Positions 5,995 to 40,577 of a stretch of 64,000 nt of DNA are shown here, piece after piece (position 1 is the stretch's first letter; each line of letters starts with the position of its first letter). The DNA is taken from positions 2,930-66,929 of the forward strand of contig JAOUMD010000001.1 of the NCBI GenBank assembly GCA_029881675.1, read 5' to 3'. A program made the position numbers and the translations under genes. The stretch is from Minisyncoccota bacterium. GTDB lineage: Bacteria > Patescibacteriota > Microgenomatia > UBA1400 > PJMF01. The notes below the pieces were generated by a model, which searched no databases, was not told the DNA's origin, and saw only the letters and a program-made list of their open reading frames with translations.

Positions 5995-6044
5995 AAAAAA
6001 ACCTCCTATGTACTTAAGAGGAGGTAACTATTATTTATTTTGTC

Positions 6045-6142
6045 TTACGACCACATCTTTCCCTCTTAAGTGAATTGGGCACCGTGTCCTTGCCAGAGGC
6101 TCGGTTGCCGGGTGAATTGCTTCACCACTCTTGATGTATATA
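6045..6142 (-). promoter_or_regulatory. SAM-I-family (S-box) riboswitch aptamer in the metK 5' leader. The expression platform continues to about 5995, a CCUCCU...AGGAGG hairpin plus U7 that sequesters the SD immediately before the AUG.
   Basis: Minus-strand RNA reads 'UACAUCAAGAGUGGUGAAGCAAUUCACCCGGCAACCGAGCCUCUGGCAAGGACACGGUGCCCAAUUCACUUAAGAGGGAAAGAUGUGG'. It matches the SAM-I core 'AUCAAGAG.GGUG...CCCGGCAACC...GGUGCCAAUUCC...GAAAGAUG' with P1 closing CAUC/GAUG. P2 is shortened (GGUGAA-GCAA-UUCACC), reminiscent of SAM-I/IV variants. Confidence 0.7.
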
Positions 6143-12040: not shown

Positions 12041-12041
12041 A

Positions 12042-26021: not shown

Positions 26022-26660
26022 ATGAATAAACAAATAAATATAATCTTTGACTTTGATTCAACCTTAGTAACTATAGAAGGTATTGATGAGCTAGCTAAAT
26101 TAAAAAACAAAGAGCAAGAAGTAATAAAACTAACTAATTATGCTATGAGTGGAAAGGTTAACTTAGAAGAAGCCTTTATTAAAAGATTAGAAATAATAAA
26201 ACCAAATAAAAATGACCTTAATGTAATCTCTCAACTATATAGAGACAACATTACCAATGGAGCAAAAGAGGTAATTGATAATTTACATGACAAAGCTAAT
26301 CTCTTTATTGTTAGTGGGGGATACAAATGCTCTATGCTTCAAACCACTGATTACTTAAATATAAAAAAAGAAAATGTTTTTGCCAATCAGTTATTGTTTG
26401 ATAAAGAAGATAACTATCAATGCTTAAACGAAGAGATTCCATTATGGAAAAATAATGGTAAAGAAATAATAGTTAAACAAATACAAAAAGAAAATCCATA
26501 CAAAACTATTTTTATCGGTGATGGATACAGTGACTATGAAACTTCTAAGTGTGTTAACCAATTTATTTGCTTTGCAGGCGTAGCAAAGAGAGAAGATGTA
26601 ATGAGAAAATCAAAGAGAGTAATATATAAGTTAAGTGAGCTAAGAAAATTTTTAGATTAA
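26022..26660 (+). CDS. HAD-superfamily hydrolase, phosphoserine-phosphatase-like (subfamily IB)
   Basis: Motif I 'IIFDFDSTLV' (classic SerB-type DFDSTL) and motif IV 'GDGYSD'. Confidence 0.6.
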   Translation: MNKQINIIFDFDSTLVTIEGIDELAKLKNKEQEVIKLTNYAMSGKVNLEEAFIKRLEIIKPNKNDLNVISQLYRDNITNGAKEVIDNLHDKANLFIVSGGYKCSMLQTTDYLNIKKENVFANQLLFDKEDNYQCLNEEIPLWKNNGKEIIVKQIQKENPYKTIFIGDGYSDYETSKCVNQFICFAGVAKREDVMRKSKRVIYKLSELRKFLD

Positions 26661-27148
26661 TTAGAATTAATATCGTTATCAATTAACCCTCTAAATACCT
26701 CTGCTTTACTTGTCTCATACTGTCCCGATACCCAGTCTAAGTATTTACTCATATTTTTTGGTAAAACTAAAGATATCTTAACTAGTTTCTCTTCTATCTC
26801 ATCATTGTCATGATCTTCTTCATATAAGTTCATGTCTAATTCGAGATCACCTTCTCCTAATAATTCCTTAAGTTCTATAGAAGATAAGAAACCTTTATTT
26901 GCTAAAGATAATAATTGGTTTGCTTGATAAATATTCTTAATTACTCCATAAGCAATGAATACTCTTAAGATTATAATATATACTTTTCTGTCACTAGGTA
27001 ATCTAGATCCTTTTTGCCAACGGGATAATATACTCTCACTATAAACAAGTCCTTCATCAGCAAGTGCATCAGCAAAGCTTGCTAAGGTTTTAAAACCTGC
27101 TCTTTTTCTATACCTTTTTAATAAAGTGCCAAAAGTGATTTGTTGCAT
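26657..27148 (-). CDS. Putative HTH transcriptional regulator (paralog of 13101..13634)
   Basis: See the paralog alignment under 13101..13634. The C-terminal acidic tail differs. Confidence 0.5.
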   Translation of the reverse strand: MQQITFGTLLKRYRKRAGFKTLASFADALADEGLVYSESILSRWQKGSRLPSDRKVYIIILRVFIAYGVIKNIYQANQLLSLANKGFLSSIELKELLGEGDLELDMNLYEEDHDNDEIEEKLVKISLVLPKNMSKYLDWVSGQYETSKAEVFRGLIDNDINSN

Positions 27149-27299
27149 TTTTTTTTACAGTACCTTCATTATCTCAAAGGCTGCAATGTATAAGGCTTAT
27201 ACAATAAATTCACATTTAGTAAAGATAAATGTTCAAATATATTTAATAGTCATAGTTCTTGACTATTAGTATCTATTTATACGGTTATAATTGAAAAAG

Positions 27300-27852
27300 A
27301 TGAACAATATTAATTTTATTAAATACCACTTCAAAAACGATACAGACAAATCAAAGGTCCTAAGATGGCAACATGGATTATTAGTTAGTAAAACTCTTAA
27401 AAAATTATCTAGAAAATAATAAAGAAACACCAAAGAATATTACAAATCTTCTTAATGCTGCACTAGGGCATGATCTTATTGAAGATACCAATTGCTCAGA
27501 AGAAGAAATAATTAAGCAGTGGAATAATGAAGTCTTAATATTGATAAAAAGCCTAACAAACACTAAGGGCGATGAGAACTTTGATGATTACCTTAATAAT
27601 CTAAAACAAGCTTCTGATGAAGTAATTATCATCAAACTAGCTGATATAAAAACAAATACTCAAAGTTCAATAAAAAATTACCAAATTTTAAAAAAAGAAT
27701 GGTTTATTTCATTTTGGATTCCACTTCTCAAAGACTATTTAGAAATATTTAAAGAAACTACTTCTAATAAATATCCGTTAACAGTTAAAAATCTTATTAA
27801 AGATATTAAGGCTGATTTTAATAAAATAATAGAAATAACTGATAATAACTAA
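27300..27852 (+). pseudogene. Frameshifted or truncated HD-domain phosphohydrolase, paralog of the gene at 35169..35678
   Basis: Frame 0 reads 'MNNINFIKYHFKNDTDKSKVLRWQHGLLVSKTLKKLSRK' then stops at 27417. Frame +1 continues '...NITNLLNAALGHDLIEDTNCSEEEI...IIIKLADIKTN', which aligns to 'ALSLLYHDVLEDT...LLFKLYDKTSN' of the intact paralog. One frameshift separates the two parts. Confidence 0.45.
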
Positions 27853-27853
27853 C

Positions 27854-29725
27854 CTACTCCCACTCAGTGGTCCCGGGTGGCTTAGCAGTTAAATCATAAA
27901 CAACTCTGCTAATACCTTTTACTTCTTTAAGTATTCTAGAAACCATTGTATTTAGGTACTTCTCTGGAAAATCTACATTAGGAACTGCTGGTACTCCAGT
28001 CATAAAATCATTAGTAATAATGGTTCTAATAGCAATAGATCTATTTCCTTTTTTGGAGAAGGGTAGGGGAAGAGAAATAACAGGAACCTGACTTACCACT
28101 TTCATTAAATCATTTTCAAATAACTCCTCATTAACAATCTTATCTGCCTGACGTAATTGTTCAATTGTTTCTTTATTTAACTTTGTAGGAGTAATTTCAG
28201 TTACTGGGCCTGACTCTTTCTCTCCAAATAGATACACAACTCTATTTATTTTATGAAAAAGTTTAGGAATACTCTTTGCCATCTCAAATAATACAGGCCA
28301 ATCCATCTCACCACTAATGGCAACAACATAACTATATGTACGACCATCACCTTGAACACCAACTGATTGGATAGGAAGTAATGTTACTTGATGTTTATCT
28401 GTACAATATTTTTTCAGTCTTTTATTAATCTCTTCAAAATCATCTTCTATATATGGCTTCTTGGTACACAGAATACGAATAGCTAGACCAGGACCAGGGA
28501 ATGGATGTCTCCAAACCAAGTGTTTAGATAAACCTAGTTTTTCTCCTAACTGACGGACTTCATCTTTATGATAATCAGCTAATGGTTCAATCACTCTGCC
28601 TTGATTACGTAACTTTCTAACAAGCTCAGTATCATTATGATGAGTCTTAATTACATTGGCATTTTTGGATATGTTATCTGAAGCACTTTCAATTAGATCT
28701 GGTCTTAAAGTACCTTGAACTAGGTAGATATCTTCATCAGGTATATCTAATTCTCTTAATTCTTTTTCTGAAACTTTGATAAAGGTATCTCCAATTATTT
28801 TTCTCTTTTTCTCAGGTTCAATTGTCTCATTTAATGGGAGTGTTTCTTCTCCTTTTATCATAGTTTTGGCTGATAAAAATTCCCTAGAGACATCTACCAC
28901 TTTTAGTTTAAGACCGACTTTTCTTAAGGCTTTTTCAACTTGCTCACTCTCCTTATATCTCATAAAGCCATGATCAATATGAAGTGCAAATACTTTCTCA
29001 CTTCCTAATGCTTTTGTCACCAAAGCTGCAACTACAGTTGAGTCAACTCCACCACTAACTAAGACCAAAGCATAACCATCACCGACATGATTCTTAATTA
29101 ACTCAATGGCTTTTTCTTCACGATCTTTCATCTTATATATTGGCTTTAACTTAGCTACTTTAAATAAGAAATTAGCTAAGATATCTTTACCATTTACTGA
29201 TAGATCAACTTCTGGGTGAAACTGGACACCAAACCATGGTTTATTTTTATGTTCAATTCCGGCAATTAATTTTCCAGATTTAGCTATTACTCTAAACTCC
29301 TTACCAACCTGATCTACTGTGTCTCCGTGAGTTAACAATACAGTTTGTGTTGAGTCTAATGAATCAAAAAGTAAACTATCTGTTTCTACAGAGATATCAA
29401 AAACACCATCTTCTCTAACCGCTTTTTTTTCTACAGTGCCCCCATGGACATAATTAAGCAGTTGCATGCCATAACAAATACCAAAAATTGGGACAGAGAC
29501 TGAGAAAAGATCTGGATTATATTTTGGAGCATTCTCACCATAAACACTTTCAGGTCCACCTGAAATAATAATTGCTCCATATTGTGCTAACTCTGATGAA
29601 GGTGTTTCTAAAGGAAGGATAATTGACTCAACAGCTAGTTCACGAATTCTTCTATCGATAACTTTTGCATATTGTGCACCAGCATCTAGAATAGCTACTT
29701 GCTGTTTTTTATTAGGTTCAGTCAT
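27854..29725 (-). CDS. guaA: GMP synthase (glutamine-hydrolysing), long form
   Basis: N-terminal class-I glutamine amidotransferase ('GICYGMQLL', and the catalytic His in 'VQFHPEV') plus PP-loop 'ALVLVSGGVDSTVVAAL'. At 623 aa it is longer than the typical bacterial GuaA. Confidence 0.8.
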   Translation of the reverse strand: MTEPNKKQQVAILDAGAQYAKVIDRRIRELAVESIILPLETPSSELAQYGAIIISGGPESVYGENAPKYNPDLFSVSVPIFGICYGMQLLNYVHGGTVEKKAVREDGVFDISVETDSLLFDSLDSTQTVLLTHGDTVDQVGKEFRVIAKSGKLIAGIEHKNKPWFGVQFHPEVDLSVNGKDILANFLFKVAKLKPIYKMKDREEKAIELIKNHVGDGYALVLVSGGVDSTVVAALVTKALGSEKVFALHIDHGFMRYKESEQVEKALRKVGLKLKVVDVSREFLSAKTMIKGEETLPLNETIEPEKKRKIIGDTFIKVSEKELRELDIPDEDIYLVQGTLRPDLIESASDNISKNANVIKTHHNDTELVRKLRNQGRVIEPLADYHKDEVRQLGEKLGLSKHLVWRHPFPGPGLAIRILCTKKPYIEDDFEEINKRLKKYCTDKHQVTLLPIQSVGVQGDGRTYSYVVAISGEMDWPVLFEMAKSIPKLFHKINRVVYLFGEKESGPVTEITPTKLNKETIEQLRQADKIVNEELFENDLMKVVSQVPVISLPLPFSKKGNRSIAIRTIITNDFMTGVPAVPNVDFPEKYLNTMVSRILKEVKGISRVVYDLTAKPPGTTEWE

Positions 29726-29754
29726 ATTTATTAAATTTTAAATATATTAAATAA

Positions 29755-30360
29755 CTAATTATCAAGAATAATCTTGCCTTCTTCTGAAATAGATTCTATT
29801 GAAATAAGAGAGAAGACGGGTACTCCTGTTTCTTTTTCTATCTTTTCAACTCCACCTTGCCACTTCTTATCAAAGATTACCGCCAAACCAACAATCTCTA
29901 CACCATAATCTTGTAAGGCCTTTATTGCAGCAACAGCAGTACTACCATGAGCTACAACATCATCTACTATCAGCAATCTCATGCCAGGTTGTAAAAAGCC
30001 TATCTGACTAACAATATCATCTTGCCCTGTAGTAAAAGACTTATTACTAAACTTTACTACTGACTCCCAAGAGCTAGGTGCTATCTTAGTTCTTTTTGAA
30101 GGAAGAATTTTTCTAATTCGAAGCATATCTGCAACAATAGATACTAAGCGAGAACCTGCATCAGGTAATCCCACAATTGCATCTATTCTCGGATAATCAA
30201 CATAATGCTCAGCCCAAGATCTAGAAACAAGAGACAGTAAATCAGGATCTAAAGAAATATTAAACGGAACAGCTGTAATATAGCCCTTTTGAGCGTCTTT
30301 AACTTTTGCTATTGAAAGAAAACTATTACGAAGTATGGAGAGGGAGTCTGTGTTGTGCAT
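29755..30360 (-). CDS. Type I phosphoribosyltransferase, purine (adenine/xanthine) PRTase-like
   Basis: 'IDAIVGLPDAGSRLVSIVADML' and 'LLIVDDVVAHGSTAVAAIKALQDYGVEIVGLAVIFD' closely resemble the APRT/XPRT core. Lies 30 nt upstream of guaA on the same strand. Confidence 0.65.
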   Translation of the reverse strand: MHNTDSLSILRNSFLSIAKVKDAQKGYITAVPFNISLDPDLLSLVSRSWAEHYVDYPRIDAIVGLPDAGSRLVSIVADMLRIRKILPSKRTKIAPSSWESVVKFSNKSFTTGQDDIVSQIGFLQPGMRLLIVDDVVAHGSTAVAAIKALQDYGVEIVGLAVIFDKKWQGGVEKIEKETGVPVFSLISIESISEEGKIILDN

Positions 30361-30503
30361 AAAAGTATGCTACTTATCATAACACTAAGTAGATAATTAA
30401 TTCTTTCCTTATTTGACAATTATTAGGTGAATTAATAATTAATCCTACACCTCATAGACTCTTTAGATATTTTTTTTCATAAGTTAAGAGTGACAATCCC
30501 TAT

Positions 30504-31103
30504 ATGAAAAAAGAAATTATCATTGCTCAAGATATAGATGAATGTCTATTCAATTCTGTAAAAAAACATTATCAGGAATTAACAAAGATAGGAAAAAAAC
30601 TAGGTTGGACTAATTTGCCAACTTATGAAGAAGTTTGCTTACTGGGTGGAACACATGGTGCATATGGTAAACAGACTGGATACTGGGAAATAAATGAAGA
30701 AATGAGAAATAGCTCTGAATTTAACCAAGGATTAGAACCAATTGAAGGGTCACTTGAAGCTCTTACTCTCTTACAATCAATGCTTGGGATATATCTAACT
30801 ACTAGGCCAGAAAATTTAACTTTAATAACAGAGGAAGAACTTGATGAAGCTGGTTTTCCCAAAAGAGAAGTTGTCTGTAGACCTAAATCAATCCCATTAG
30901 AACACACTACTGAGTGGAAACTAGATGTCCTTAGGTATTTAGCACAAGAGAAGACGGCTACTATGATTGATGACTCTATGAGTTTGCATAATGCCATCTT
31001 AAAAGCAAATGATCCTAGAATAGAAACTGTTCTTTTTCAAGGTCCTATGACTCCAAAGGGTAAAGGTAAAACATGGAAAAAAATTAGAGAAGAATTAAAG
31101 TAG
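30504..31103 (+). CDS. HAD-superfamily phosphatase, NT5C-like (paralog of 14875..15516)
   Basis: See the paralog alignment under 14875..15516. Divergently paired with a PRTase, as the first copy is. Confidence 0.5.
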   Translation: MKKEIIIAQDIDECLFNSVKKHYQELTKIGKKLGWTNLPTYEEVCLLGGTHGAYGKQTGYWEINEEMRNSSEFNQGLEPIEGSLEALTLLQSMLGIYLTTRPENLTLITEEELDEAGFPKREVVCRPKSIPLEHTTEWKLDVLRYLAQEKTATMIDDSMSLHNAILKANDPRIETVLFQGPMTPKGKGKTWKKIREELK

Positions 31104-31238
31104 TAATTATTAATATCTTTTAGCATGAATAGTTATTAATTTTAAAATATTTTGACAATCATTCTTCCAAAGTATAAAATTATTTTTCAGAGCTTAGATA
31201 AAAAAGAAAATTTCTTTGTATCTAAACTCTGATTTTTT

Positions 31239-31862
31239 ATGACAAACAAAAATAATGGAATAATAATAGCAATCGTTGGACCACACTATAGTGGAAAATC
31301 TACTTTATCTCAGAAATTATTTCATGAGAGTAACTTCTCAACAGTAGAAGAAAAATGGCTTGAAGATCCATTTACACAATTTCGCAAAAAAGGTGACTAC
31401 TTAAAATCACAAATATGGTTTCTTACAGAAACTATGAAAACAATGCTTGAAGCCATTAACATGAAAAATAATGGTTCTAAAATTGTCTTAGATACTTTTG
31501 TAAATACTACCCGAGCATTTTGTAGATCTAAACTTTCTACGCAAGATTTTAAAATATTTAACATTGTTTTTGACAATATTGTCAAGGATTTTCCTTTACC
31601 TGATCTAATAATCTATCTCACAGGATCAGTAGATGCTCTTAAACAAAGAAGTATTATTAGAGCCAAATCGGGAACTGGTCCAGATAGTGATAAAAACGTT
31701 TCTCTTGAATGGATAAAAAAATCTATTGATGCAAATGAAGAAGAATTTGGAAACTGGACCAAAACACCGATAATTAAGATTGATGTTTCAAATAAAGATG
31801 TAATAAATAACAAATTAGATTACAACGAACTTTTACAAAAGGTCATTAACACCCAGAACTAA
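31239..31862 (+). CDS. P-loop nucleoside/nucleotide kinase, deoxynucleoside-kinase-like
   Basis: Walker A 'IIAIVGPHYSGKSTLSQKL' at the N-terminus. About 207 aa with dNK/dNMP-kinase-like spacing. Specificity unknown. Confidence 0.45.
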   Translation: MTNKNNGIIIAIVGPHYSGKSTLSQKLFHESNFSTVEEKWLEDPFTQFRKKGDYLKSQIWFLTETMKTMLEAINMKNNGSKIVLDTFVNTTRAFCRSKLSTQDFKIFNIVFDNIVKDFPLPDLIIYLTGSVDALKQRSIIRAKSGTGPDSDKNVSLEWIKKSIDANEEEFGNWTKTPIIKIDVSNKDVINNKLDYNELLQKVINTQN

Positions 31863-31996
31863 TTTATATCTCAATATATTCTATTTAATAAATTAATTTC
31901 TATAATATGAAATTTTTCTTCTTTATATTCTTTTCTATGTTTTTTTCTTAAAAAATTACGATAATAATTAGATTTCCTCACATAATTCTTGACTCC

Positions 31997-34312
31997 ATGG
32001 TCAAAAATAATTCATTACCAGATGAAATAATCTACAACATTAGATTATTAAATTCTATTAGAATCATTATGGTAAAAGAAATACAATCCTTTGCCCCTCA
32101 GGCAGAACAACTAAGACAAAGACGAGACAGTTGGTTAAGAATGTTTGATAAAGACTTAAGATCTAAAATGTCTGAGCGACAAGGTTTTAAATCAGAATTA
32201 CCCTTAACTGCTCATTTCTTAATTGACGGATCAGTAAAAATTCCCTTTGCAGAGTTTTCTCAACTGCCTGACTGGATGAAAAAATTCTTCCTTGACGATA
32301 GAGTTTCTCGTCCACCATCAGTCTCAGTTTTTTCAGATTACAATGATAGTTTAGAACATCCAGAAGTTTTAGCGTCAGTTCAAAATAACACTAAAGATAT
32401 AGTTCTAAGAGGGGGTCGTTTTTGGGATTTTGATGGAAGTAAAGCAAACTATGGACCAGACGGGGCAGAAGCAGTTGAACTACTCTTTGAAAACATTAAC
32501 GGAAATATGTCAATAATAAATCAATTAATTAATTTTGAACCTCAAAATGAATTTGAATGGTTGGCAAGAATTGCAGCATGGGAATATATTAGAAATGATT
32601 TTTGTGCTGTCTATTATTCTTTAAAATGTAGAATTGCGAAAGTTGATGATGCTTCTGCACATGAATTGGGTGTTATTGATCACGCACTTGAATATATTTC
32701 AAATAGATACTTTGACAGTATCCTCATGTTTCAAACAGATCCCCATAGAGGTTCTAGAGAATTAAGTGAGATAGTGAATAATGCAGAAGAAATAAAATCT
32801 ACTTTAAGTGAGTTTGTTTCTGATCCTCAATTTGAAGGGCGAGATCTACTCAGATCTCATAGAGAAGTTAACAACCCACTATCATTAATGAATGCTTTTA
32901 GATTAATTTATAAATCTGACAGTGATTCTAATGAACTTAGTTATACTGATGAAATTAAAAATAATGATGCCATTTTAGCTCCTCTTTATGGGGGAATTGA
33001 TTTGGCCTATGCTTTCAGATATGCTCTCGGTGATGGGCAAAGATATATTGAACAACTTCTAGATACTAAGCTATGTGATGATAAAAAATTTGTTAAAGTT
33101 TTACCTGTACTCTCAAAACTAGGAAGTAAGGGTGTTGTTAGATCCCAATTATCTAAGATTGATTCAGTAATTCCAAATTTAAATTCAGATGAGTCTGTTA
33201 ATGGTAGAGAGAAGGGCTGGTTGGCTAAAGAAATTCCAGATGCCAGAAGTATTCTAGTTATTGATGACTCTCTAGCGACAGGTGGATCAGCGGTAGTATT
33301 CAAAGATTGGGTCTCTGAAGCACTTGGACATGATGTTGAAATGGAACTTAGAGTAATTTATGCCAACCTAAGATGGTCAAAACACCAATGTCCAATAGAA
33401 GATTTAATGGCAGCAGATCCTATTACTCAAACTCCAATTACTAGAAGCATGAAAAAGGCTCTATATCCACTTGGTAGTAGATTTATGCCAGATGCAGTAA
33501 GCAATCATCTACAACAAAAAACAAAACGGACTTTTTCAAGTTTAACTGATGCAATGCCAGAGATAACTAAAATGCATCAGAAAAAAACTATTGAAGCTGT
33601 TGGCTTTGATCTTGATGACACACTAATACTACGTACTGTTGATGCTAAAGCAAGAAGAATCATGATTAACCATTCTATACTTAGACTTCTAAATCAGAAC
33701 GGGATTACTATAGATCCCGATCTATATGCAGAACGTAGTTATAAAATTCTTAATAGGGAGAGGGGATTATCTCAAACTAATCCCAACCATCCTATTGATA
33801 TGGATTCTTGTAATAAAGAAATTTTAATTGACCTAGGTATAACAGATAAAGCTCAATTAAAAATCTTAGCCCCACTAATGACTCTTGAAGAACTTAAAGT
33901 AGATCAAAAAATTGTGATTCCAGCTCCTGGAGCAAGAGAGATATTAGAAGAACTAATTAGCTTAGGAATAGACTTTGGAATATTTTCAAATTCTCACTAT
34001 CTTGTCCAACACATTGAACAAATTCTTATTGCTGCTGGGATTGATGATCTACTAATAGATAGAACTCTTCTAACCTCAGCTAATCCAGGTACCCCTCAAA
34101 AACCTGATGGACAAGCAATAAAAAATCTTGCTAAAGAAATGGGTACCATAGTTCAAGACCTTGCATATGTTGGTAATTCATTCCAAACAGATGTGGTTGG
34201 TTCGACAAAGAGTGGCGGAGTTTCAATATATATACCCCAACCAGTAGATGCTATAAGTAGAGCAGAAATAACTAAAATAAAAAATTGGAAAGAACAATTA
34301 GCCAATGTCTAA
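31997..34312 (+). CDS. Multidomain protein: unknown N-terminal domain (about 400 aa), then a type I PRTase domain, then a C-terminal HAD phosphatase domain
   Basis: PRTase motif 'ILVIDDSLATGGSAVVF' near aa 420. HAD motif I 'AVGFDLDDTLI', motif II 'GIFSNS', and a motif III/IV region 'K...VGNSFQTDVVG'. Confidence 0.55.
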   Translation: MVKNNSLPDEIIYNIRLLNSIRIIMVKEIQSFAPQAEQLRQRRDSWLRMFDKDLRSKMSERQGFKSELPLTAHFLIDGSVKIPFAEFSQLPDWMKKFFLDDRVSRPPSVSVFSDYNDSLEHPEVLASVQNNTKDIVLRGGRFWDFDGSKANYGPDGAEAVELLFENINGNMSIINQLINFEPQNEFEWLARIAAWEYIRNDFCAVYYSLKCRIAKVDDASAHELGVIDHALEYISNRYFDSILMFQTDPHRGSRELSEIVNNAEEIKSTLSEFVSDPQFEGRDLLRSHREVNNPLSLMNAFRLIYKSDSDSNELSYTDEIKNNDAILAPLYGGIDLAYAFRYALGDGQRYIEQLLDTKLCDDKKFVKVLPVLSKLGSKGVVRSQLSKIDSVIPNLNSDESVNGREKGWLAKEIPDARSILVIDDSLATGGSAVVFKDWVSEALGHDVEMELRVIYANLRWSKHQCPIEDLMAADPITQTPITRSMKKALYPLGSRFMPDAVSNHLQQKTKRTFSSLTDAMPEITKMHQKKTIEAVGFDLDDTLILRTVDAKARRIMINHSILRLLNQNGITIDPDLYAERSYKILNRERGLSQTNPNHPIDMDSCNKEILIDLGITDKAQLKILAPLMTLEELKVDQKIVIPAPGAREILEELISLGIDFGIFSNSHYLVQHIEQILIAAGIDDLLIDRTLLTSANPGTPQKPDGQAIKNLAKEMGTIVQDLAYVGNSFQTDVVGSTKSGGVSIYIPQPVDAISRAEITKIKNWKEQLANV

Positions 34313-35153
34313 AATACCTATTATTATCGATACTGATGTCTTTGGTGACCCAGATGACATACTAGCCATTACCTACTTACTTGCAAACCAAGACAAGATA
34401 GAAATTAAACTTATCGTAACTGCTGATGAACATAAAGGGATGAGAGCAGCTTGGTTACAAAAAATATTCTCAAAAGCAGGGCTTGATGTTCCTATAGTGG
34501 CTGGCGTTGACCTCGGTAACACCAGACTTTTTCTTTTTGATGAAATTAACACTAGCAATGTAAATTTCAATTATCTTGAAGCAATCAAAGAAGTTATAGA
34601 ATCTAATGATTCAACTACATATCTTTGTATGGCTCCTCAATCTAACTTAGCTGCCTTTATTTCTAAATATCCTCACCTTAAAAATAAAATAGTTGTAAAA
34701 GGTATGGGTGCAGTTTTAGATATAGACTTAGGCAGAATAGAACACAATGTGAAATATGACATTGAAGCATTTAAAACAGTAGCTAGTCAGATGAAACCAC
34801 AACTCTTATTAGCTGATCATACTTGGCATGACAGTATGCAATTCCACAAAGAAACTGAGATGTATAAGATGATAGATAAAAGCACTAATCCTCTTGCTCT
34901 TGCAATAATAAAAAATGCCAATGCTTTTTACGATACCCTTTATCCTCAATCAAGATTTCATGATCCAATCTTAGCTAGTATTCTTCTTGATGACTTTCTA
35001 GAATTTACTCCTGACAAACTAATTGTTGAACCAAATGGATTTACAAGAAGACCTAAAAAAGGTGAAAAGGGGTGTGAAGTTACGGTAAGTAAAAGTGTTG
35101 ATTATGATAACTTATACACTCATTTCTTTAATAGTCTAAAACAATATCTCTAG
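34305..35153 (+). CDS. Inosine-uridine-preferring nucleoside hydrolase family protein
   Basis: N-terminal 'KIPIIIDTDVFGDPDDILAITYLL' is the IU-nucleoside-hydrolase aspartate cluster (D-x-D-x-x-x-D-D). 8-nt overlap with the upstream gene. Confidence 0.75.
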   Translation: MSKIPIIIDTDVFGDPDDILAITYLLANQDKIEIKLIVTADEHKGMRAAWLQKIFSKAGLDVPIVAGVDLGNTRLFLFDEINTSNVNFNYLEAIKEVIESNDSTTYLCMAPQSNLAAFISKYPHLKNKIVVKGMGAVLDIDLGRIEHNVKYDIEAFKTVASQMKPQLLLADHTWHDSMQFHKETEMYKMIDKSTNPLALAIIKNANAFYDTLYPQSRFHDPILASILLDDFLEFTPDKLIVEPNGFTRRPKKGEKGCEVTVSKSVDYDNLYTHFFNSLKQYL

Positions 35154-35168
35154 CTACAAAATATATTT

Positions 35169-35678
35169 ATGAAAATTAACCTATCAAAACACATAGAAAC
35201 TGTAATTAAAGCTCATGTAGATCACCCCAAAGAAGAAATCAATAAATATCGTTTCTTTGATAAAAAGACACCGTATGTTGTCCATCCAATATGGTGTGCT
35301 ACTACTATATTAACAGAGCCAAAACTTGATTTTGACCTAAGACAAAAAGGAGCATTATCACTTCTATACCACGATGTTTTAGAAGATACTTTAGCTCCAT
35401 TACCAGAAGATTTGCCAAGTGAAATTAAAGAATGGATTAGAGACATGACCTTTGATGGGGGCTTTGAAGAAGAACAGGTTAAACTATTCACAAAGCCAAA
35501 AGAAGTTTTACTCTTTAAGCTTTATGATAAAACCTCAAACTTACTGGATGCCACTTGGATGGATAAAGAGTTATATAAAACATATTTTGACTTTACTCAA
35601 AAGTTATCAAAGAAAGTAACCAAACATTACGGAGAGTTAAATATTACTAAGATACTTGGTACCTTAAAATATAGATAG
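35169..35678 (+). CDS. HD-domain phosphohydrolase (YfbR-like 5'-deoxynucleotidase candidate)
   Basis: 'VHPIWCA' (the His) and 'LLYHDVLEDT' (the HD motif). 169 aa. Confidence 0.55.
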   Translation: MKINLSKHIETVIKAHVDHPKEEINKYRFFDKKTPYVVHPIWCATTILTEPKLDFDLRQKGALSLLYHDVLEDTLAPLPEDLPSEIKEWIRDMTFDGGFEEEQVKLFTKPKEVLLFKLYDKTSNLLDATWMDKELYKTYFDFTQKLSKKVTKHYGELNITKILGTLKYR

Positions 35679-35681
35679 TAT

Positions 35682-36248
35682 TTAATAATACTTATCTTCC
35701 TTAGCCATCTCTTCTACAAGTAATGATCTAATAATATCTGCCTTTGATTTGTTCATCTTTTGAGACTTCTCGTTAAGAAAGTTAACTAAGTCTGAAGAAA
35801 GCATCATATTAAACCTTTGGTCCTTTTCTTTTGAAATAAAGTTAATTGCATTGCTAATAATCTCTCTTAAGTTACTTTGGTTATAACCTAAGACAATTAA
35901 CTTATCTGATTTAATATCTTTGAGGATATGAGGTGTAGCTGAGTCTTTATGCAAGGCAATTACAAACTTATTATGTAATAGAGCCATACTTATTTCTTGA
36001 CCTATTCCTATTGAAGAATGAGTAACTTCAACAACAATCACATCTGCATCTTTCTTTTGTTTAGAGATCATTTCTTGTTCTAATAGATTTTCCTTCTCAC
36101 TCTTATTAAAATACTGATCTTTATTATTAAATCTTCTTTCAAAAAGGTTTACATAACCTAATTCCTCAAAGTAGTCACAAATTAAATTACAATCTTTTTT
36201 TAACTCACTGGTCATCTTGCTGATGGAGACAGAGAAGTAGATTTTCAT
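35682..36248 (-). CDS. DNPH1(Rcl)/nucleoside-2-deoxyribosyltransferase-like domain fused to a C-terminal ribbon-helix-helix domain (paralog A; catalytic Glu retained)
   Basis: 'MKIYFSVS' N-terminus. 'DVIVVEVTHSSIGIGQEISMALLHNKFVIAL' aligns to Rcl 'VVVAEVTQPSLGVGYELGRAVALGKPILCLF', with Glu at the nucleophile position. C-terminal 'QRFNMMLSSDLVNFLNEKSQKMNKSKADIIRSLLVEEM' is a beta-strand / helix / turn / helix RHH pattern. Confidence 0.6.
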   Translation of the reverse strand: MKIYFSVSISKMTSELKKDCNLICDYFEELGYVNLFERRFNNKDQYFNKSEKENLLEQEMISKQKKDADVIVVEVTHSSIGIGQEISMALLHNKFVIALHKDSATPHILKDIKSDKLIVLGYNQSNLREIISNAINFISKEKDQRFNMMLSSDLVNFLNEKSQKMNKSKADIIRSLLVEEMAKEDKYY

Positions 36249-36811
36249 TAGTTATTCTGCTTTTTCATATCCATTCTAATTAACTCTCTTATGTGCGAAG
36301 ACTTAGGCTTTCTATTTTTCTTCGATAGTTTATTTAAATAATTAATCAACTCAGGTTCTAACATTAAATTAAATCTCTTTAACTGCCTCCCTTTGGCATA
36401 TTCAAGTCCTTCTTCAACGACATCCTCCAAATTTGATCCATCATATTCTAAATATATAAAGTTCTCATCATCCATACCTTTTAAAAACACTGATTCATAT
36501 CCTATTTCATGAAATGCAAGAATAGTCTTATTTTGTTCTAAAGCCATAGTTACCTCATGACCAATATTAATTGTTGATGGAAATGACATTTCTGCTATTA
36601 CTAGATCACATTTCCCAATCCACTTAACAACTTTTTTATAATACTTTGTTGAAGTATCCAGAGTTTTGTTTCTAATATCATCCATTGAGACATCTAAAAT
36701 ATGGTCTGCTTTAATAGTATGACCTAGATCTTCAGCTCGTTTTACAATCCTCTCAAAGAAGTCTTTATGGTCTTTTCTGAAATAAATAGAACCAGTGAAA
36801 TATATATTCAT
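36248..36811 (-). CDS. DNPH1/NDT-like + RHH fusion (paralog B; catalytic Glu retained)
   Basis: 'MNIYFTGSIY', 'DLVIAEMSFPSTINIGHEVTMAL', and C-terminal 'KRFNLMLEPELINYLNKLSKKNRKPKSSHIRELIRMDM'. 4-nt overlaps with both neighbours. Confidence 0.6.
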   Translation of the reverse strand: MNIYFTGSIYFRKDHKDFFERIVKRAEDLGHTIKADHILDVSMDDIRNKTLDTSTKYYKKVVKWIGKCDLVIAEMSFPSTINIGHEVTMALEQNKTILAFHEIGYESVFLKGMDDENFIYLEYDGSNLEDVVEEGLEYAKGRQLKRFNLMLEPELINYLNKLSKKNRKPKSSHIRELIRMDMKKQNN

Positions 36812-37374
36812 TTATTTAACTCAACTTTCATCAACTCATTAATAGCTTTTCGAATTATTTGAGCTTTAGACATTTTATTCTTTTTTGAGTAATCGTTAAG
36901 GAAATTTATCATTTGAGGAGAAAGCATTAAGTTAAAACGCTTATCTTGATTTCCAGAAAAATAATCAAATGCATCTGAAATAACATCATCAATACTTTCA
37001 TATGTATATTCTGATACGACTAGATTAGGGTCATGAATTCCTGAGAGAAAAAATGGAGCATTTCCTTTTGAATATAAACACAAAGTTGGTTTTGATAACT
37101 CAATACCTTTATTAATTAGGTAGCCCATTGATAAACTATGAATAGATACTTCTACAACTATTACATAAGCTTTTTTCAAGTTAGTAAGTGTATTCTGATA
37201 GTGCTGATCAATCTCTTCTAATGAATATTCGTAAAAACTATCTGGATCATTATTTATAACTAAATCTGAAGTATGTTTACCATAGGCAGATAGTGACTTA
37301 TATATCTTATTTAAGTTATCAGATTGTTCTTTTATTCTTAAGGAACGAGGGGAGCCGGTGAAGAATATTTTCAC
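36808..37374 (-). CDS. DNPH1/NDT-like + RHH fusion (paralog C; nucleophile Glu replaced by Leu, N-terminal Tyr replaced by Phe)
   Basis: 'MKIFFTGSP', 'YVIVVEVSIHSLSMGYLINKGIELSKPTLCLY', and C-terminal 'KRFNLMLSPQMINFLNDYSKKNKMSKAQIIRKAINELM'. Confidence 0.55.
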   Translation of the reverse strand: MKIFFTGSPRSLRIKEQSDNLNKIYKSLSAYGKHTSDLVINNDPDSFYEYSLEEIDQHYQNTLTNLKKAYVIVVEVSIHSLSMGYLINKGIELSKPTLCLYSKGNAPFFLSGIHDPNLVVSEYTYESIDDVISDAFDYFSGNQDKRFNLMLSPQMINFLNDYSKKNKMSKAQIIRKAINELMKVELNK

Positions 37375-37931
37375 AAATCTTTCCCCTTCATATCTTCTTT
37401 AATCAAACCTCTTATATAAACAGCTTTTGGAGTTTTTGTTTTCTTTGATAACTTATTCAAATACAGATTCATCTTCTTACTAAGCATCATGTTATATCTA
37501 ACATCATTCTCAAAAAACAAATTATCTAATGCTAAATCAATTACTTTCTTATAATTTTTTTCTGAATACTCCCACAATTGAAACCTCTCATCATCTATAC
37601 CTTCAATAAAGAGTTGCCTATTTCCTTTTGTATATAGACAGATTACATTCTTCTCATGCTTTAAAGCATGTAATATCTGAAAACCAATAGTAATACTAGG
37701 AGTAGAGGTCTCTAAAATAACGACATCACTCTTCTTCATTAACGAATCAGCTTGATCATAAACATGCTTAATGTGAAAGGAAGTAGGTTTATAAAAATCT
37801 TCAAAGTTTTCTTTAGAAAGGTAATCTAAAACAATTTTATGTCCTATGTCTTGAAGGTAAGACTGGACTTTTGTTACCAAGTTGATCTGTTTCTTATCTG
37901 ATCTTCCAGATAAGTTTAGATATATATTCAT
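37371..37931 (-). CDS. DNPH1/NDT-like + RHH fusion (paralog D; Glu replaced by Gln)
   Basis: 'MNIYLNLSG', 'DVVILETSTPSITIGFQILHALKHEKNVICLY', and C-terminal 'VRYNMMLSKKMNLYLNKLSKKTKTPKAVYIRGLIKEDM'. First gene of the four-gene minus-strand operon. Confidence 0.55.
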   Translation of the reverse strand: MNIYLNLSGRSDKKQINLVTKVQSYLQDIGHKIVLDYLSKENFEDFYKPTSFHIKHVYDQADSLMKKSDVVILETSTPSITIGFQILHALKHEKNVICLYTKGNRQLFIEGIDDERFQLWEYSEKNYKKVIDLALDNLFFENDVRYNMMLSKKMNLYLNKLSKKTKTPKAVYIRGLIKEDMKGKDL

Positions 37932-38073
37932 ACTTGGTATTAGATTCTATCATACAAAAGTGTAATAGATACGTCTTTTAAATATTCCATTCTCAAGAAT
38001 AGATGATAAAATTTATAGAATTTGGTGTAAAATATACACAGCCAATAAATATCAGTTATTTAGAAAGACGGCA

Positions 38074-38643
38074 ATGAAAATTTTCTTGAGCGCTTCAATC
38101 TACGGTAAACAACATCTTGAGGATAGTTGTAAGAAGATTGTTGAACTAACTAAGAAAAGTGGTAATACTATTGTTGCTGATCATATTTTAAGCACTACAA
38201 GTGAAGACATGCTTAAATGGCAAAAAGATAAAGATATTGAATTTCATAACTTTGTTATGAATGGTGTAAAGAACTCTGATGCAGTTTTTGCAGAAATTTC
38301 ACACCCAAGTACTTCAGTAGGTTACTTAATTGCTATTGCAGCCCAAACAGGTAAGCCAGTAGTTTGTTTTTATAATGGGGATAAAAAACCTCACCTCTTT
38401 AATACTCTAGAACAACAAAATGATAAGTTTGTAGTGGTTGAATATCATAAGCCTGAAGATTTAGACAAACTTGTCCCAGAAATGATTGAGTTTATTCATG
38501 AAGGACAAGATACTAGATTTAACTTCTTTGTTACTCCAAAACATATTAACTATATGAACTGGATTGCTAAAAATAAACGAATTCCTAGGTCTGTTTTCTT
38601 GAGGAGATTGATTGAAGAGGAGATGAAGAAGAATGAATTTTGA
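38074..38643 (+). CDS. DNPH1/NDT-like + RHH fusion (paralog E; Glu replaced by Leu, Tyr replaced by Phe)
   Basis: 'MKIFLSASIYGKQHLEDSCKKIVELTKKSGNTIVADHIL' aligns to the Rcl N-terminus 'LYFCGSIRGGRED..LY.RIV..L...G.VLTEHV'. Also 'AVFAEISHPSTSVGYLIAIAAQTGKPVVCFY' and C-terminal 'TRFNFFVTPKHINYMNWIAKNKRIPRSVFLRRLIEEEM'. Confidence 0.6.
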   Translation: MKIFLSASIYGKQHLEDSCKKIVELTKKSGNTIVADHILSTTSEDMLKWQKDKDIEFHNFVMNGVKNSDAVFAEISHPSTSVGYLIAIAAQTGKPVVCFYNGDKKPHLFNTLEQQNDKFVVVEYHKPEDLDKLVPEMIEFIHEGQDTRFNFFVTPKHINYMNWIAKNKRIPRSVFLRRLIEEEMKKNEF

Positions 38644-39067
38644 AAATAAAAATTTTAATAGAATAAATGTAGCTGCACTTATAGTTGATGAAAATAGTCG
38701 TTTTTTAATTTGTAAAAGAAGTAAAAATAAAAAATTTCTTCCAGGAATTTGGCACTTCCCAGGAGGAAAGGTAGAAAAAGGTGAATCTAATATTCAAGCT
38801 TTACAAAGAGAACTAATTGAAGAAATTAATATTAAGAATATATCAGAATTTATAGATCTTAAGATATCACATGAATATATTGTAAAAGAAGAGAAACATA
38901 AAACAGAATTTTACTTTTGTAAAACTACAGATACGCCAAATATAAATAATGAAGAAAATGAAGCCTTAAAATTTATTTTACCAGTTGAAGTAAAAGATTA
39001 TATTAATGATAGAAGTACAACAATTCTAATTAATGCTGTTCAGAAAGTCTTAAATGAAAACCAATAA
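38633..39067 (+). CDS. Nudix hydrolase
   Basis: Nudix box 'GGKVEKGESNIQALQRELIEEINI' (G-x5-E-x7-R-E-U-x-E-E-x-(G to N)-U). 144 aa. Overlaps paralog E by 11 nt. Confidence 0.75.
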   Translation: MNFENKNFNRINVAALIVDENSRFLICKRSKNKKFLPGIWHFPGGKVEKGESNIQALQRELIEEINIKNISEFIDLKISHEYIVKEEKHKTEFYFCKTTDTPNINNEENEALKFILPVEVKDYINDRSTTILINAVQKVLNENQ

Positions 39068-39956
39068 TGTTCAGTACCATAAACAGCTATCAAATGCTTT
39101 TTTTGATAAAAACGGGAAATCATCAGCGCTCCCTACAATAATTAAGACTATAGAAGAACAACTCAAAATAAAAAAAACTATCAACTTTTTAGATATAGGA
39201 TGTAATAGAGGCACTCTTTATTCTATTTTAAAAATTATAATATATGAAAATAAATGGGAGGATAGGATAAATTTTTATGGTATAGATTATGACAAAAAAT
39301 CAATAGAATTGTGTTCAAAAAGACATAATGATGTTATTTTTTACAATATTAACCTAAATAAAATTAATATAAAAATCAAAGATCATTTTGACATAATTAC
39401 ATCTATTAACACTCTCCATGAAGTCTTTTCTGGATACATATTAAAACAAAGTGGTAAAAACGATCTATCATTCAAAAATGCAAAGACTCATACCGAAGCA
39501 GTTTTAACAGAATTAATAAAATTACTTAATAAAAATTCTTCATTTATTATTTATGATGGATTGGATGTTGAAACTTTTCAATATGAAAATATTGTTAGGT
39601 TTTCTTTTGTAAATGCTAAAGATAAAGACTTATTTAATATATTTGTTAAAGAATACGAACCTATTCCAATTAACGTTAAAGAGATAAATTTAAATCTTTT
39701 TGAGACTTCTAAAAGTAATCTACTAAGATTAATCAGTACATTCAAATATATTAACACTGATATTTGGGACATTGAACGAAAACAAACATATCATTTTTTT
39801 TCTATAACTGACTTTAAAAATACCGCTTATAATAATAATCTTAAAATAGAAACTATTAAAAGTTTTTCTAATGACATAGAACTTTGGAAATCAAAATTCA
39901 TATTAGAAGACTCTGATTGGCCTGAAAAATCAGTATTAATAAAGTATAATAATTAA
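39054..39956 (+). CDS. Class I SAM-dependent methyltransferase-like protein
   Basis: Motif I-like 'INFLDIGCNRGTL', 'FYGIDYDKKSIELC', and a post-II 'FDIITSINTLHEV'. 300 aa. Overlaps the Nudix gene by 14 nt. Substrate unknown. Confidence 0.45.
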   Translation: MKTNNVQYHKQLSNAFFDKNGKSSALPTIIKTIEEQLKIKKTINFLDIGCNRGTLYSILKIIIYENKWEDRINFYGIDYDKKSIELCSKRHNDVIFYNINLNKINIKIKDHFDIITSINTLHEVFSGYILKQSGKNDLSFKNAKTHTEAVLTELIKLLNKNSSFIIYDGLDVETFQYENIVRFSFVNAKDKDLFNIFVKEYEPIPINVKEINLNLFETSKSNLLRLISTFKYINTDIWDIERKQTYHFFSITDFKNTAYNNNLKIETIKSFSNDIELWKSKFILEDSDWPEKSVLIKYNN

Positions 39957-39958
39957 AT

Positions 39959-40528
39959 ATGAAAATTCACTTTATCGGAGATCTTAATGGAGACATTGCA
40001 CAATACGAAAGTATTATAAACCTAATTGAAAAATTAGGTCATAGAATCGTCACAAAACATTTTATTAAAAGAAGTTTCGAAGAACTTAAAAATGAAACCG
40101 ATAAAGATGCCGCTGATTATTCAAAAAAAATGAAAAAGTGGATTAATGGATCTGATGCTGTGATAGTAGAAATTACAAAACCAGGGCTAGGCTCGGGTTA
40201 TGAAATATCAACTGCACTAGCGTTAAGTAAACCAGTTATTGTTTTATTTAAAGAAAATCAAAAAAATAGCCCTCATGTGTTAAAAGGTATTGAATCTGAT
40301 AAGTTACAAGTAATGAATTACAACATGGATAACCTTTCTGATTTACTAAACGACGCACTAGACTACGCCTCATCCCAACAAGACACCCGCTTCAACTTCT
40401 TTGTAGCCCCTAAGCACATTAACTTCTTAGATTGGGTAGCAAAGAATAAGAAGATACCTAGATCTGTTTTCCTTAGAAGACTTATCGAAAGAGAAATAGC
40501 TAATGATGAACAGTATTCTAATCAGTAA
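39959..40528 (+). CDS. DNPH1/NDT-like + RHH fusion (paralog F; Glu retained, N-terminal Tyr replaced by His)
   Basis: 'MKIHFIGDL', 'AVIVEITKPGLGSGYEISTALALSKPVIVLF' (closest of the six to the Rcl core), and a C-terminal 'TRFNFFVAPKHINFLDWVAKNKKIPRSVFLRRLIEREI' that is nearly identical to paralog E's C-terminus. Confidence 0.6.
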   Translation: MKIHFIGDLNGDIAQYESIINLIEKLGHRIVTKHFIKRSFEELKNETDKDAADYSKKMKKWINGSDAVIVEITKPGLGSGYEISTALALSKPVIVLFKENQKNSPHVLKGIESDKLQVMNYNMDNLSDLLNDALDYASSQQDTRFNFFVAPKHINFLDWVAKNKKIPRSVFLRRLIEREIANDEQYSNQ

Positions 40529-40548: not shown

Positions 40549-40577
40549 TAACCCCTCTTATTAGAGGGGTTTTTTAA
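40549..40577 (+). terminator. Rho-independent terminator
   Basis: AACCCCUCU-UAUU-AGAGGGGUU hairpin followed by UUUUUU. Confidence 0.7.

Follow-up and report, generated by a model that had tools for sequence, protein, structure and literature searches.

Four separately inherited nucleotide modules, one an array of DNPH1-like proteins with a predicted ribbon-helix-helix domain, lie side by side in a Candidatus Pacebacteria genome

Some regulators are derived from enzymes or fused to them. PutA joins a ribbon-helix-helix (RHH) domain to proline dehydrogenase, NadR joins a helix-turn-helix (HTH) domain to an NMN adenylyltransferase/kinase, PurR of Bacillus subtilis is a sensor with a phosphoribosyltransferase (PRTase) fold, and PyrR is likewise an enzyme-derived or enzyme-fused regulator. 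Here we describe a protein family in which a domain like that of the enzyme DNPH1/Rcl is followed by a predicted RHH domain. Six paralogues, NDT1 to NDT6, form an array within positions 26657-40528 of a stretch of 64,000 nucleotides (the window) from a 211-kb contig of a metagenome-assembled genome of Candidatus Pacebacteria (Microgenomates), a member of the candidate phyla radiation (CPR). This affiliation agrees with the original prediction, which was made from the letters of the window and read the interval as a nucleotide-salvage island that would fit an organism lacking de novo nucleotide synthesis, such as an episymbiont. CPR bacteria are thought to depend on scavenged nucleotides. To our knowledge, the regulation of their nucleotide traffic is almost unstudied, and few CPR transcription factors have been identified.

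The family resembles PutA, NadR, PurR and PyrR in combining a DNA-binding domain with an enzyme fold of nucleotide metabolism and in lying beside pathway genes, and it resembles PurR also in the partial loss of catalytic residues. It differs from all four in its DNPH1-like fold, C-terminal RHH, tandem paralogues and variable upstream partner, and in that DNA binding and ligand are predicted. Our favoured reading, to which we give a probability of about 0.5, is that 26657-40528 is a salvage neighbourhood of separately inherited modules beside enzyme-derived, nucleotide-sensing DNA-binding regulators. Regulators of this general kind, with an enzyme-fold sensor joined to a DNA-binding domain beside salvage genes, are known, and the present combination is probably new; we found no paper in which an RHH or HTH is attached to a domain of the DNPH1 or NDT type, none on the cassette arrangement described below, and none that relevantly connects either of these enzymes with CPR salvage.

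The array consists of two divergent operons. Here and below, names of the form L002 denote loci in other genomes, and L002, L008 and L011 are three that carry orthologues of the array.

35682-37931, minus strand: NDT1-4 operon, four DNPH1-like+RHH paralogues overlapping by 1-4 bp
35682-36248, minus strand: NDT1, nucleophile Glu kept
36248-36811, minus strand: NDT2, nucleophile Glu kept
36808-37374, minus strand: NDT3, Leu at the nucleophile position
37371-37931, minus strand: NDT4, Gln at the nucleophile position
37932-38073, no strand assigned: divergent promoter region between the two operons, with blocks GATAAAAT, TTCTCA and TTTGGTnTAAAAT conserved with L002, L008 and L011
38074-40528, plus strand: tight operon NDT5–Nudix–methyltransferase–NDT6, whose first three genes overlap by 11 and 14 bp, NDT6 following after 2 bp
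38074-38643, plus strand: NDT5, Phe and Leu at the catalytic Tyr and Glu positions
38633-39067, plus strand: Nudix144, Nudix hydrolase (profile 5e-18)
39054-39956, plus strand: MT300, class I S-adenosylmethionine (SAM) methyltransferase (profile 2e-9)
39959-40528, plus strand: NDT6, His at the Tyr position, Glu kept
40550-40571, no strand assigned: bidirectional intrinsic-terminator-like hairpin closing the array (9-bp stem, 5 G-C pairs, T runs on both strands)

The six proteins (186-189 aa, 23-33% mutual identity) had been described as NDT/DNPH1-like with an RHH, and of the two enzyme names it is DNPH1 that holds. A family profile matched rat and human DNPH1/Rcl in the PDB at E = 3.5e-22 and classical NDT, a base-exchange transferase, at 0.02, so we rejected the latter as the nearest relative. 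With an AlphaFold2 (AF2) model (pLDDT 84), the top 50 Foldseek matches were all DNPH1 (target TM 0.75-0.85), placing the domain in the DNPH1 fold. DNPH1/Rcl, a 2'-deoxynucleoside 5'-phosphate N-hydrolase and 5-hydroxymethyl-dUMP hydrolase, belongs to the NDT superfamily (PF05014). The likeness extends to fold and sequence register over ~138 residues. The core AE..PS.G.G(Y/H)E and the Ser that binds phosphate (rat S87) are conserved, and NDT1, NDT2 and NDT6 have the nucleophile Glu as well. In contrast to DNPH1/Rcl, the window family is bacterial and CPR-restricted, adds a C-terminal RHH (or, in some relatives, an N-terminal HTH), has Leu or Gln as the nucleophile residue in NDT3-5, and is highly variable at the phosphate loop GSIRGGR.

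Active-site residues were unevenly kept across the six paralogues. When mapped on rat Rcl, the nucleophile Glu (rat E93, human E104) is present in NDT1, NDT2 and NDT6 and replaced by Leu in NDT3 and NDT5 and by Gln in NDT4. The catalytic Tyr (rat Y13) occurs in NDT1, NDT2 and NDT4 only, with Phe, Phe and His in NDT3, NDT5 and NDT6. The position of the water-activating Asp (rat D69, human D80) holds Val, Ile, Thr, Ala or Met across NDT1-6; no Asp was seen there in these proteins or the orthologues compared with them, nor was it among the eight commonest residues in 157 family representatives, and the Tyr and Asp together that would mark a DNPH1/Rcl N-glycosidase are not found in this set. The Glu is kept in 95 of the 157 representatives, leaving about 40% without it. 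The states of NDT1-5 are identical to those of their orthologues, which argues that these are old, stable lineages rather than decaying copies. NDT6 departs from its orthologues: its Glu is Leu in them, and its His corresponds to a Tyr or a gap.

These patterns bear on an enzymatic alternative, in which the DNPH1-like+RHH proteins are (deoxy)nucleoside monophosphate N-glycosidases, each matched to an upstream enzyme that makes the monophosphate (a kinase, thymidine kinase, deaminase or PRTase). They would release base and (deoxy)ribose-5-phosphate to feed salvage and fermentation, and the RHH would serve for dimerisation only. Such a role sits poorly with the loss of the nucleophile in ~40% of the family and in three of the six window paralogues, in states that orthologues keep, and with a family in which the water-activating Asp was not seen.

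The C-terminal domain is the better conserved part of the protein, which also counts against simple catalysis. Mean pairwise identity across 148 full-length representatives was 40.5% for the RHH and 29.3% for the DNPH1-like domain, and R146, F147 and R175 were conserved at 93-99% in the same set. A 47-column profile of the C-terminus retrieved only RHH proteins at the top, with CopG (7by2, 1b01, 2cpg) at marginal E-values of 0.03-0.05 and then YiiF and VapB; no Pfam RHH match was found for NDT1-6 at E<=0.01. In the AF2 monomer, a coil (146-152) is followed by two helices (153-166 and 170-186). The predicted domain would share with the CopG/Arc/MetJ repressors a β-strand–helix–helix of ~45 residues, a conserved Arg plus Asn/Thr on the strand, and a Ser/Ala starting helix 2, but the similarity is marginal and in NDT1-6 the domain lies C-terminal to a 140-residue enzyme-like domain. 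RHH proteins contact DNA through this strand, and the conserved Arg/Asn would lie on it, a placement that the glycosidase alternative does not account for. Since three of the six lack the Glu, none has the Asp and the RHH is better conserved, we consider these proteins unlikely to be simple catabolic enzymes.

The strongest argument for DNA binding by the family comes from relatives in which one enzyme-like domain is fused to two unrelated DNA-binding domains. In P0134 and P0147, an N-terminal Xre-type HTH (~100 residues) replaces the RHH on the DNPH1-like domain, and P0009 has the order DNPH1-HTH-DNPH1. These swaps are hard to explain if the RHH serves for dimerisation alone. The HTH module of P0147 and P0009 is also that of HTH-RHH163 in the window (BLASTP 3e-22 and 2e-20), a protein whose RHH aligns with the RHH of NDT1-6 and which has no DNPH1-like domain. 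It has a paralogue near a further protein with a PRTase motif for phosphoribosyl pyrophosphate (PRPP):

26657-27148, minus strand: HTH-RHH163, N-terminal Xre-type HTH module of ~100 aa (Pfam HTH_31, E 1e-3) and C-terminal RHH
13101-13634, minus strand: second HTH-RHH paralogue, identified by clustering
13965-14690, minus strand: 241-aa protein with a match to the PRTase PRPP loop (NCBIfam APRT/HPT loop, 2e-5)

An orthologue of the 241-aa protein directly follows the HTH-RHH of the array in L008 and lies just beyond the NDT-RHH array in L002 too.

Judged from sequences and models, the most likely role of the DNPH1-like+RHH proteins is that of one-component regulators, with DNA binding, ligand sensing and regulatory targets all predicted. 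Their effector domain would derive from a (deoxy)nucleoside-5'-monophosphate N-glycosidase. NDT1, NDT2 and NDT6, with the Glu kept, may still cleave a nucleotide and would then be enzyme-repressors like PutA, NadR or PyrR; NDT3, NDT4 and NDT5, with the Glu lost, would sense a ligand without catalysis, as PurR does. We also considered an RHH-tethered DNA glycosylase and set it aside, as the DNPH1 pocket binds a free 5'-phosphate mononucleotide.

The family is large and, by informative record titles, confined to Patescibacteria/Microgenomates (Collier-, Woese-, Ames-, Roizman- and Chisholmbacteria). Records titled "uncultured Pseudomonadales" share gene contexts with Microgenomates loci, and we infer that they are mislabelled. 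An exhaustive profile search returned 2,799 cluster representatives at E<1e-3, and 300 at the stricter threshold of E<1e-30; almost every one was a full-length match of 185-195 aa, indicating that the DNPH1-like+RHH fusion is the normal form. A separate scan of one genome per species, seeded with a pattern of the NDT2 lineage, returned 78 loci, and this seed led to over-representation of the main (Glu-containing) clade among them.

Family genes often lie close behind a gene for a nucleotide enzyme, the kind of which varies. We called and clustered open reading frames (ORFs) in all loci, which gave 134 family genes in 81 loci. A same-strand upstream gene was present for 111 of the 134 (median gap 7 bp), and in 27 cases it was another family member. 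The other 84 upstream genes included 62 encoding a methyltransferase (25, in at least eight unrelated clusters), a kinase (16: PfkB 6, AAA_33 6, thymidine kinase 3, other 1), the prokaryotic viperin pVip (13), a PRTase (3), a dCMP-type deaminase (3) or another radical SAM protein (2); the remainder were recR (7) or encoded proteins without assignment. Downstream genes belong to the backbone (a 70-aa membrane protein, pil genes, cysS). The cassettes occupy fixed, housekeeping sites, namely ybeY-dnaX-ybaB-recR…cysS, beside pilM/N/O and beside an RmlC-like gene, and they can be stacked, as in recR–MT31→N–PfkB→N–cysS, where N is a family member. The window fits this rule at MT300→NDT6, and MT300-like→N is found also in L073 and L081. 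The association of nucleotide enzymes with the family, noted at first from this one locus, is therefore recurrent in other genomes.

The clades within the main group track partner type, not site. Viperin-linked members from the recR-cysS and RmlC sites cluster together, and MT31- and MT74-linked members likewise cluster by partner. In the main clade the nucleophile Glu is retained in 63 of 68 members and the Tyr in 46 of 68, whereas Glu-less clades are usually a further copy, e.g., N(inactive)→methyltransferase→N(active). It is here that the glycosidase alternative finds its support: the retained residues, the clades that follow partner type, upstream partners that mostly make nucleoside monophosphates, and the PRTases, nucleoside hydrolase and kinases that adjoin the array in the window would all fit an enzyme acting on its neighbour's product. 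The methyltransferases and viperin are, however, ill-suited to a kinase-then-glycosidase scheme, and taking these points together with those above, we regard that alternative as unlikely.

The link with viperin raises a different interpretation of the cassettes. In 13 Microgenomates loci at two chromosomal sites (L024, L027, L030, L036, L038-L040, L046-L048, L050, L052 and L055), a family gene is immediately preceded by pVip (radical SAM, ~293 aa; PADLOC pVip, 7.8e-55), commonly accompanied by a PfkB kinase. Compared with those loci, the window has no viperin. Described pVip systems do not include a DNPH1-like+RHH partner, and PADLOC has no model of one. Because pVip is directly upstream of a family member in 13 genomes, a role in conflict is possible for some cassettes, and this link, together with the stacks at hot spots and the clades specific to one partner, leads us to keep a conflict reading for cassettes in general. 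Tentatively, and with clearly less confidence than in our favoured reading, we suggest that enzyme partner and DNPH1-like+RHH protein form a mobile two-gene cassette of Microgenomates, with the latter as a promiscuous antitoxin- or immunity-like regulator for nucleotide conflict. In such a cassette, the DNPH1-derived partner would co-evolve with the enzyme and either neutralise its non-canonical nucleotide product or respond to that product by switching the cassette on; cassettes would be stacked at the recR-cysS and pil-adjacent hot spots, and the window array would be an expanded sensor set.

A stronger version, in which these pairs are mobile toxin-antitoxin-like or antiphage cassettes and the window is a defence or nucleotide-depletion locus, seems improbable to us. 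It would cast the constant partner as neutralising or regulating a variable effector, like promiscuous antitoxin domains. The gene order, with the enzyme first and the partner with a C-terminal RHH second, resembles that of hicAB/brnTA-type operons. The tandem stacks at recR-cysS, the exchange of cassettes between sites together with a partner-specific clade, and the pVip loci would fit as well. Yet the partners (thymidine kinase, PfkB, PRTase, dCMP-type deaminase) for the most part resemble enzymes of ordinary salvage, the family sits at fixed housekeeping positions across many Microgenomates, and the viperin is missing from the window. The original prediction had left room for defence, and in PADLOC-DB v2 we found for the window only two generic matches, between the kinase and VakA (1.7e-9) and between the Nudix protein and PDC-S07 (4.9e-22); NDT2, representing the NDT-RHH proteins, and the 771-aa protein, nucleoside hydrolase, HD169, HAD199 and MT300 described here had no match. 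Pattern scans of viral contigs likewise gave no relatives of the NDT-RHH family or of the 771-aa protein family.

The remaining genes of the interval, between HTH-RHH163 and the array, fall into three modules of predicted nucleotide salvage. The first pairs a GMP synthase with a PRTase and is accompanied by a gene remnant:

27385-27852, plus strand: truncated remnant of an HD (RelA/SpoT-type) gene, listed ORF 27541-27852 (103 aa)
27854-29725, minus strand: guaA, glutamine-hydrolysing GMP synthase of eukaryotic type, 623 aa (NCBIfam NF000848)
29755-30360, minus strand: PRT201, type I PRTase nearest to xanthine PRTase (Pfam Pribosyltran, 8e-13)

GuaA is assigned by its NCBIfam equivalog (496 bits, cut-off 400) and its Pfam domains (GATase, NAD_synthase/PP-loop and GMP_synt_C). 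It matched human GMPS (2vxo) at E 1.9e-200 (670 bits), compared with about 1e-90 (308 bits) for bacterial GuaA. PRT201 lies 29 bp upstream on the same strand and is a type I PRTase (Pribosyltran, 48.4 bits, cut-off 26.3). Its best NCBIfam match was XPRT (2e-17), with scores of 63 and 55 bits against the xanthine-PRTase equivalogs (cut-offs 177 and 164), and because it is below every equivalog cut-off a specificity for xanthine is putative. The pairing of a purine-type PRTase with guaA that had been noticed in the window is conserved: PRT201 orthologues with 58-59% identity lie beside a guaA at 9 bp in L095 and at 2 kb in L096. The arrangement recalls the purine salvage pair XPRT + GuaA, in that GMP synthase directly follows a PRTase nearest to XPRT and two other genomes keep the pair; the differences are the equivalog scores of PRT201 and the guaA itself, which is of bacterial type in the relatives (L095 10607-12076; L096 12536-14005) and there only 32-33% identical to the window guaA. 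This looks like an in-place replacement of guaA by a eukaryote-type xenologue. The module would convert xanthine (or guanine) and PRPP to XMP and then to GMP.

The second and third modules lie on the plus strand and would supply a phosphatase and the interconversion of nucleosides, bases and monophosphates:

30504-31103, plus strand: HAD199, putative HAD-type phosphatase (DxD, T and DD motifs recognised by eye)
31239-31862, plus strand: dNK207, P-loop kinase of the deoxynucleoside-kinase family and first gene of its operon (Pfam dNK, 1.2e-14)
31997-34312, plus strand: 771-aa protein, in which ~290 N-terminal aa of no known family are followed by a PRTase-like region and then by a HAD phosphatase domain (3.6e-9) at the C-terminus
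34305-35153, plus strand: IUNH282, inosine-uridine-preferring nucleoside hydrolase (Pfam IU_nuc_hydro, 3.4e-16)
35169-35678, plus strand: HD169, small HD-domain protein, weakly RelA/SpoT/MESH1-like (NCBIfam spoT_relA, E 0.002)

HAD199 would form the second module by pairing with a nucleoside kinase. Its orthologues in L098 and L099 are followed at 2-4 bp by a kinase of the PRK/uridine-kinase type, and on a third contig such a kinase is two genes away. Searches of Pfam, NCBIfam and PDB sequences gave no match, and LNS2/APP1 appeared only at E 0.03-0.15, so that the putative nucleotidase role comes solely from this context and the motifs seen by eye. The interval had been thought to hold NT5C-like HAD phosphatases, which these results do not bear out; a second candidate, HAD212 (26022-26660), was rejected as a nucleotidase because it is SerB-like (TIGR00338, 1.7e-31, below cut-off).

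The third module, dNK–771-aa–IUNH, is preceded by a near-consensus promoter (31152-31180). The kinase matches PF01712 over residues 10-202 of 207 (55 bits, cut-off 27), and IUNH282 matches PF01156 (60.2 bits, cut-off 34.2) and contains DTDVFGDPDD, placing both in the families first proposed for them; IUNH282 is far below the cut-offs of the RihA and RihC equivalogs. IUNH282 overlaps the 771-aa gene by 8 bp, and its orthologues (65-67% identical) have the same operon position. The operon occurs with overlapping genes in three unrelated contexts, among them a recG-nusB slot in L090 and, in L093, a place flanked by DUF1295 and DUF805. In L006 the recG-nusB slot, ~8 kb from the pil-adjacent NDT-RHH site, is taken by a DNPH1-like gene of 145 aa that lacks an RHH and by a gene of 301 aa.

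The 771-aa protein had been read as a PRTase+HAD fusion. The HAD stands, and the middle region is at best PRTase-like: excised, it scored 18.9 bits (E 9.6e-4) against Pfam Pribosyltran, below the cut-off of 26.3, and hhalign to PRT201 gave a probability of 3.8% (E 0.011) with the PRPP loops aligned. We therefore do not class it as a PRTase, although the PRPP loop VIDDSLATGGS is invariant in the four homologues. The family is rare, with only four clusters in a search of 5.8 billion proteins, and an AF2 model built from four sequences had a pLDDT of 59, with most of the N-terminal 290 residues below 50. Three homologues begin level with an internal Met (MVKEIQ…, 32069), which is probably the true start, making the listed start 72 nt too far upstream.

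HD169 is appended to the operon in the window genome only and is absent after IUNH in L090 and L093. It had no Pfam match and weak PDB matches to Rel (7oiw, E 0.006) and MESH1 (3nr1, E 0.07). Its supposed frameshifted paralogue at 27385-27852 is instead a truncated remnant. By three-frame translation, GHDLIEDT lies in an open frame from 27385, with an in-frame stop just upstream and no start codon before 27541, and the similarity is weak (tblastn with HD169, E 0.011; Pfam HD_4 in the extended frame, E 0.0086, 16.3 bits, cut-off 27.2). With the HD protein added here, the third module would cleave nucleosides to bases and turn nucleosides and bases into monophosphates.

Comparison with relatives shows that these modules do not form the single 14-kb island that had been proposed. 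In L002, L008 and L011, the three closest relatives, the gene order is gatCAB–M48 protease–LemA–p595–p216–p553–NDT6 orthologue–methyltransferase–NDT5 orthologue–NDT3 or NDT4 orthologue–NDT2 orthologue–(NDT1 orthologue)–(HAD212 orthologue)–HTH-RHH163 orthologue. The array genes are one-to-one orthologues, with 52-66% identity in the NDT1-4 operon, and ancestrally the site belonged to the array. At the array position these loci have neither the Nudix gene nor the guaA-to-HD169 block (27.2-35.7 kb); modules 1-3 are elsewhere or were not found, and in 88 other loci no NDT-RHH gene had any of the seven block proteins within 10 kb. A methyltransferase is kept between the NDT5 and NDT6 orthologues, but it is not detectably homologous to MT300. 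We thus read the interval 26657-40528 as four nucleotide modules, each separately inherited, that have come to lie side by side in this lineage.

Next to the HTH-RHH of L008 comes the 13965-14690 orthologue, and further on those of 9892-10533 and 7729-9831. Since these flanking orthologues adjoin the array, the segment of ~14.7-35.7 kb is extra in the window relative to L008 and L002. Just beyond the array, L002 has a DUF4922/GDPGP1-like protein of the nucleotidyl-phosphorylase type and a Nudix hydrolase (11887-13571), so different nucleotide genes fill the equivalent place.

A site of this kind may simply be a hot spot of rearrangement and insertion, with modules brought together by chance and lacking functional integration. 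The extra 14.7-35.7 kb also carries non-nucleotide genes (argH/argG, PEPC, aminotransferases, glutamine synthetase, histidine phosphatase, cupin), part of it has a copy of HTH-RHH at each end, and guaA is a eukaryote-type xenologue, all of which would suit chance. We nevertheless think this improbable. Firm nucleotide-handling domains were found in 12 of the 17 ORFs in 26657-40528, compared with about 1 of 43 in the remaining window (Fisher p = 5e-8, or 3e-5 with the six paralogues collapsed to one), and nucleotide enzymes recur beside the family elsewhere, as with the DUF4922/GDPGP1-like and Nudix proteins of L002 and the PRTase-like protein of L008. G+C content is ~33% in the window, and we saw no compositional break at 26657-40528.

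The original prediction therefore held in much of its gene content. All 17 ORFs that it named for 26657-40528 are present where it placed them, and its picture of ~14 kb dominated by enzymes of nucleotides, nucleosides and bases agrees with the counts above, as do its Nudix and SAM-methyltransferase calls with the profile matches. The individual enzymes are ordinary. Profile support is firm for GuaA, PRT201, dNK207, IUNH282, Nudix144, MT300 and the HAD part of the 771-aa protein and weak for its PRTase half, for HD169 and the HD remnant, and for HAD199. Salvage is a reasonable reading of modules 1-3, as the chemistry of PRTase→guaA and of dNK–fusion–IUNH fits; it does not extend easily to the NDT-RHH proteins as catabolic enzymes.

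Several observations weigh against our favoured reading. The search for an operator was negative: shared repeats in 26.6-40.9 kb were AT-rich chance matches only, k-mer enrichment upstream of 82 cassette promoters was traced to a set that are orthologues of one another (those of the window, L002, L008 and L011), and a scan for gapped palindromes in 71 de-replicated promoters against 467 background spacers gave nothing. Six tandem regulators with only two non-regulator genes among them are unusual. Retention of Glu and Tyr in the main clade fits an enzyme as well as a sensor, and the RHH assignment draws on E-values of 0.03-0.05 and a monomer model. Lastly, among the PRTase, kinase, hydrolase, HAD and HD proteins, three assignments are weak and the substrates are predicted. 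One candidate sequence deserves mention. The divergent region has counterparts in L002 (9258-9437), L008 (9320-9446) and L011 (9258-9341), and those of L002 and L008 contain an inverted pair of GTGATAAAATAC ~45 nt apart, which could be -10 boxes or a candidate operator.

Genes elsewhere in the window provide further context. A conserved 595-aa protein (43197-44984, plus strand), which had no match in Pfam or NCBIfam, has homologues in 12 other loci, encoded there less than 10 kb from NDT-RHH genes. The segment 14875-26660 encodes argH, argG, a class III aminotransferase, an archaeal-type phosphoenolpyruvate carboxylase (PEPcase_2, 5e-133) and an aspartate-type aminotransferase, as well as glutamine synthetase, a histidine phosphatase, a cupin and a SerB-like HAD, an amino-acid metabolism that is unusually rich for a CPR genome. 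The lyase at 15829-17247 was rejected as purB, since it matches argH (297 bits, cut-off 279.5). A SAM-I/IV riboswitch (6026-6142, minus strand; 57 bits, gathering score 41) precedes the S-adenosylmethionine synthetase gene (4876-5994, minus strand).

If our favoured reading is true, a lineage-specific family with hundreds of clusters at 50% identity would link (deoxy)nucleotide pools to gene expression, and the DNPH1 fold would newly join the enzyme folds that have been taken over for sensing. From the cassette rule come pairs of enzyme and candidate ligand, including the link to prokaryotic viperin. On a smaller scale, the dNK–771-aa–IUNH operon and the replacement of guaA would bear on how salvage routes are assembled in reduced genomes.

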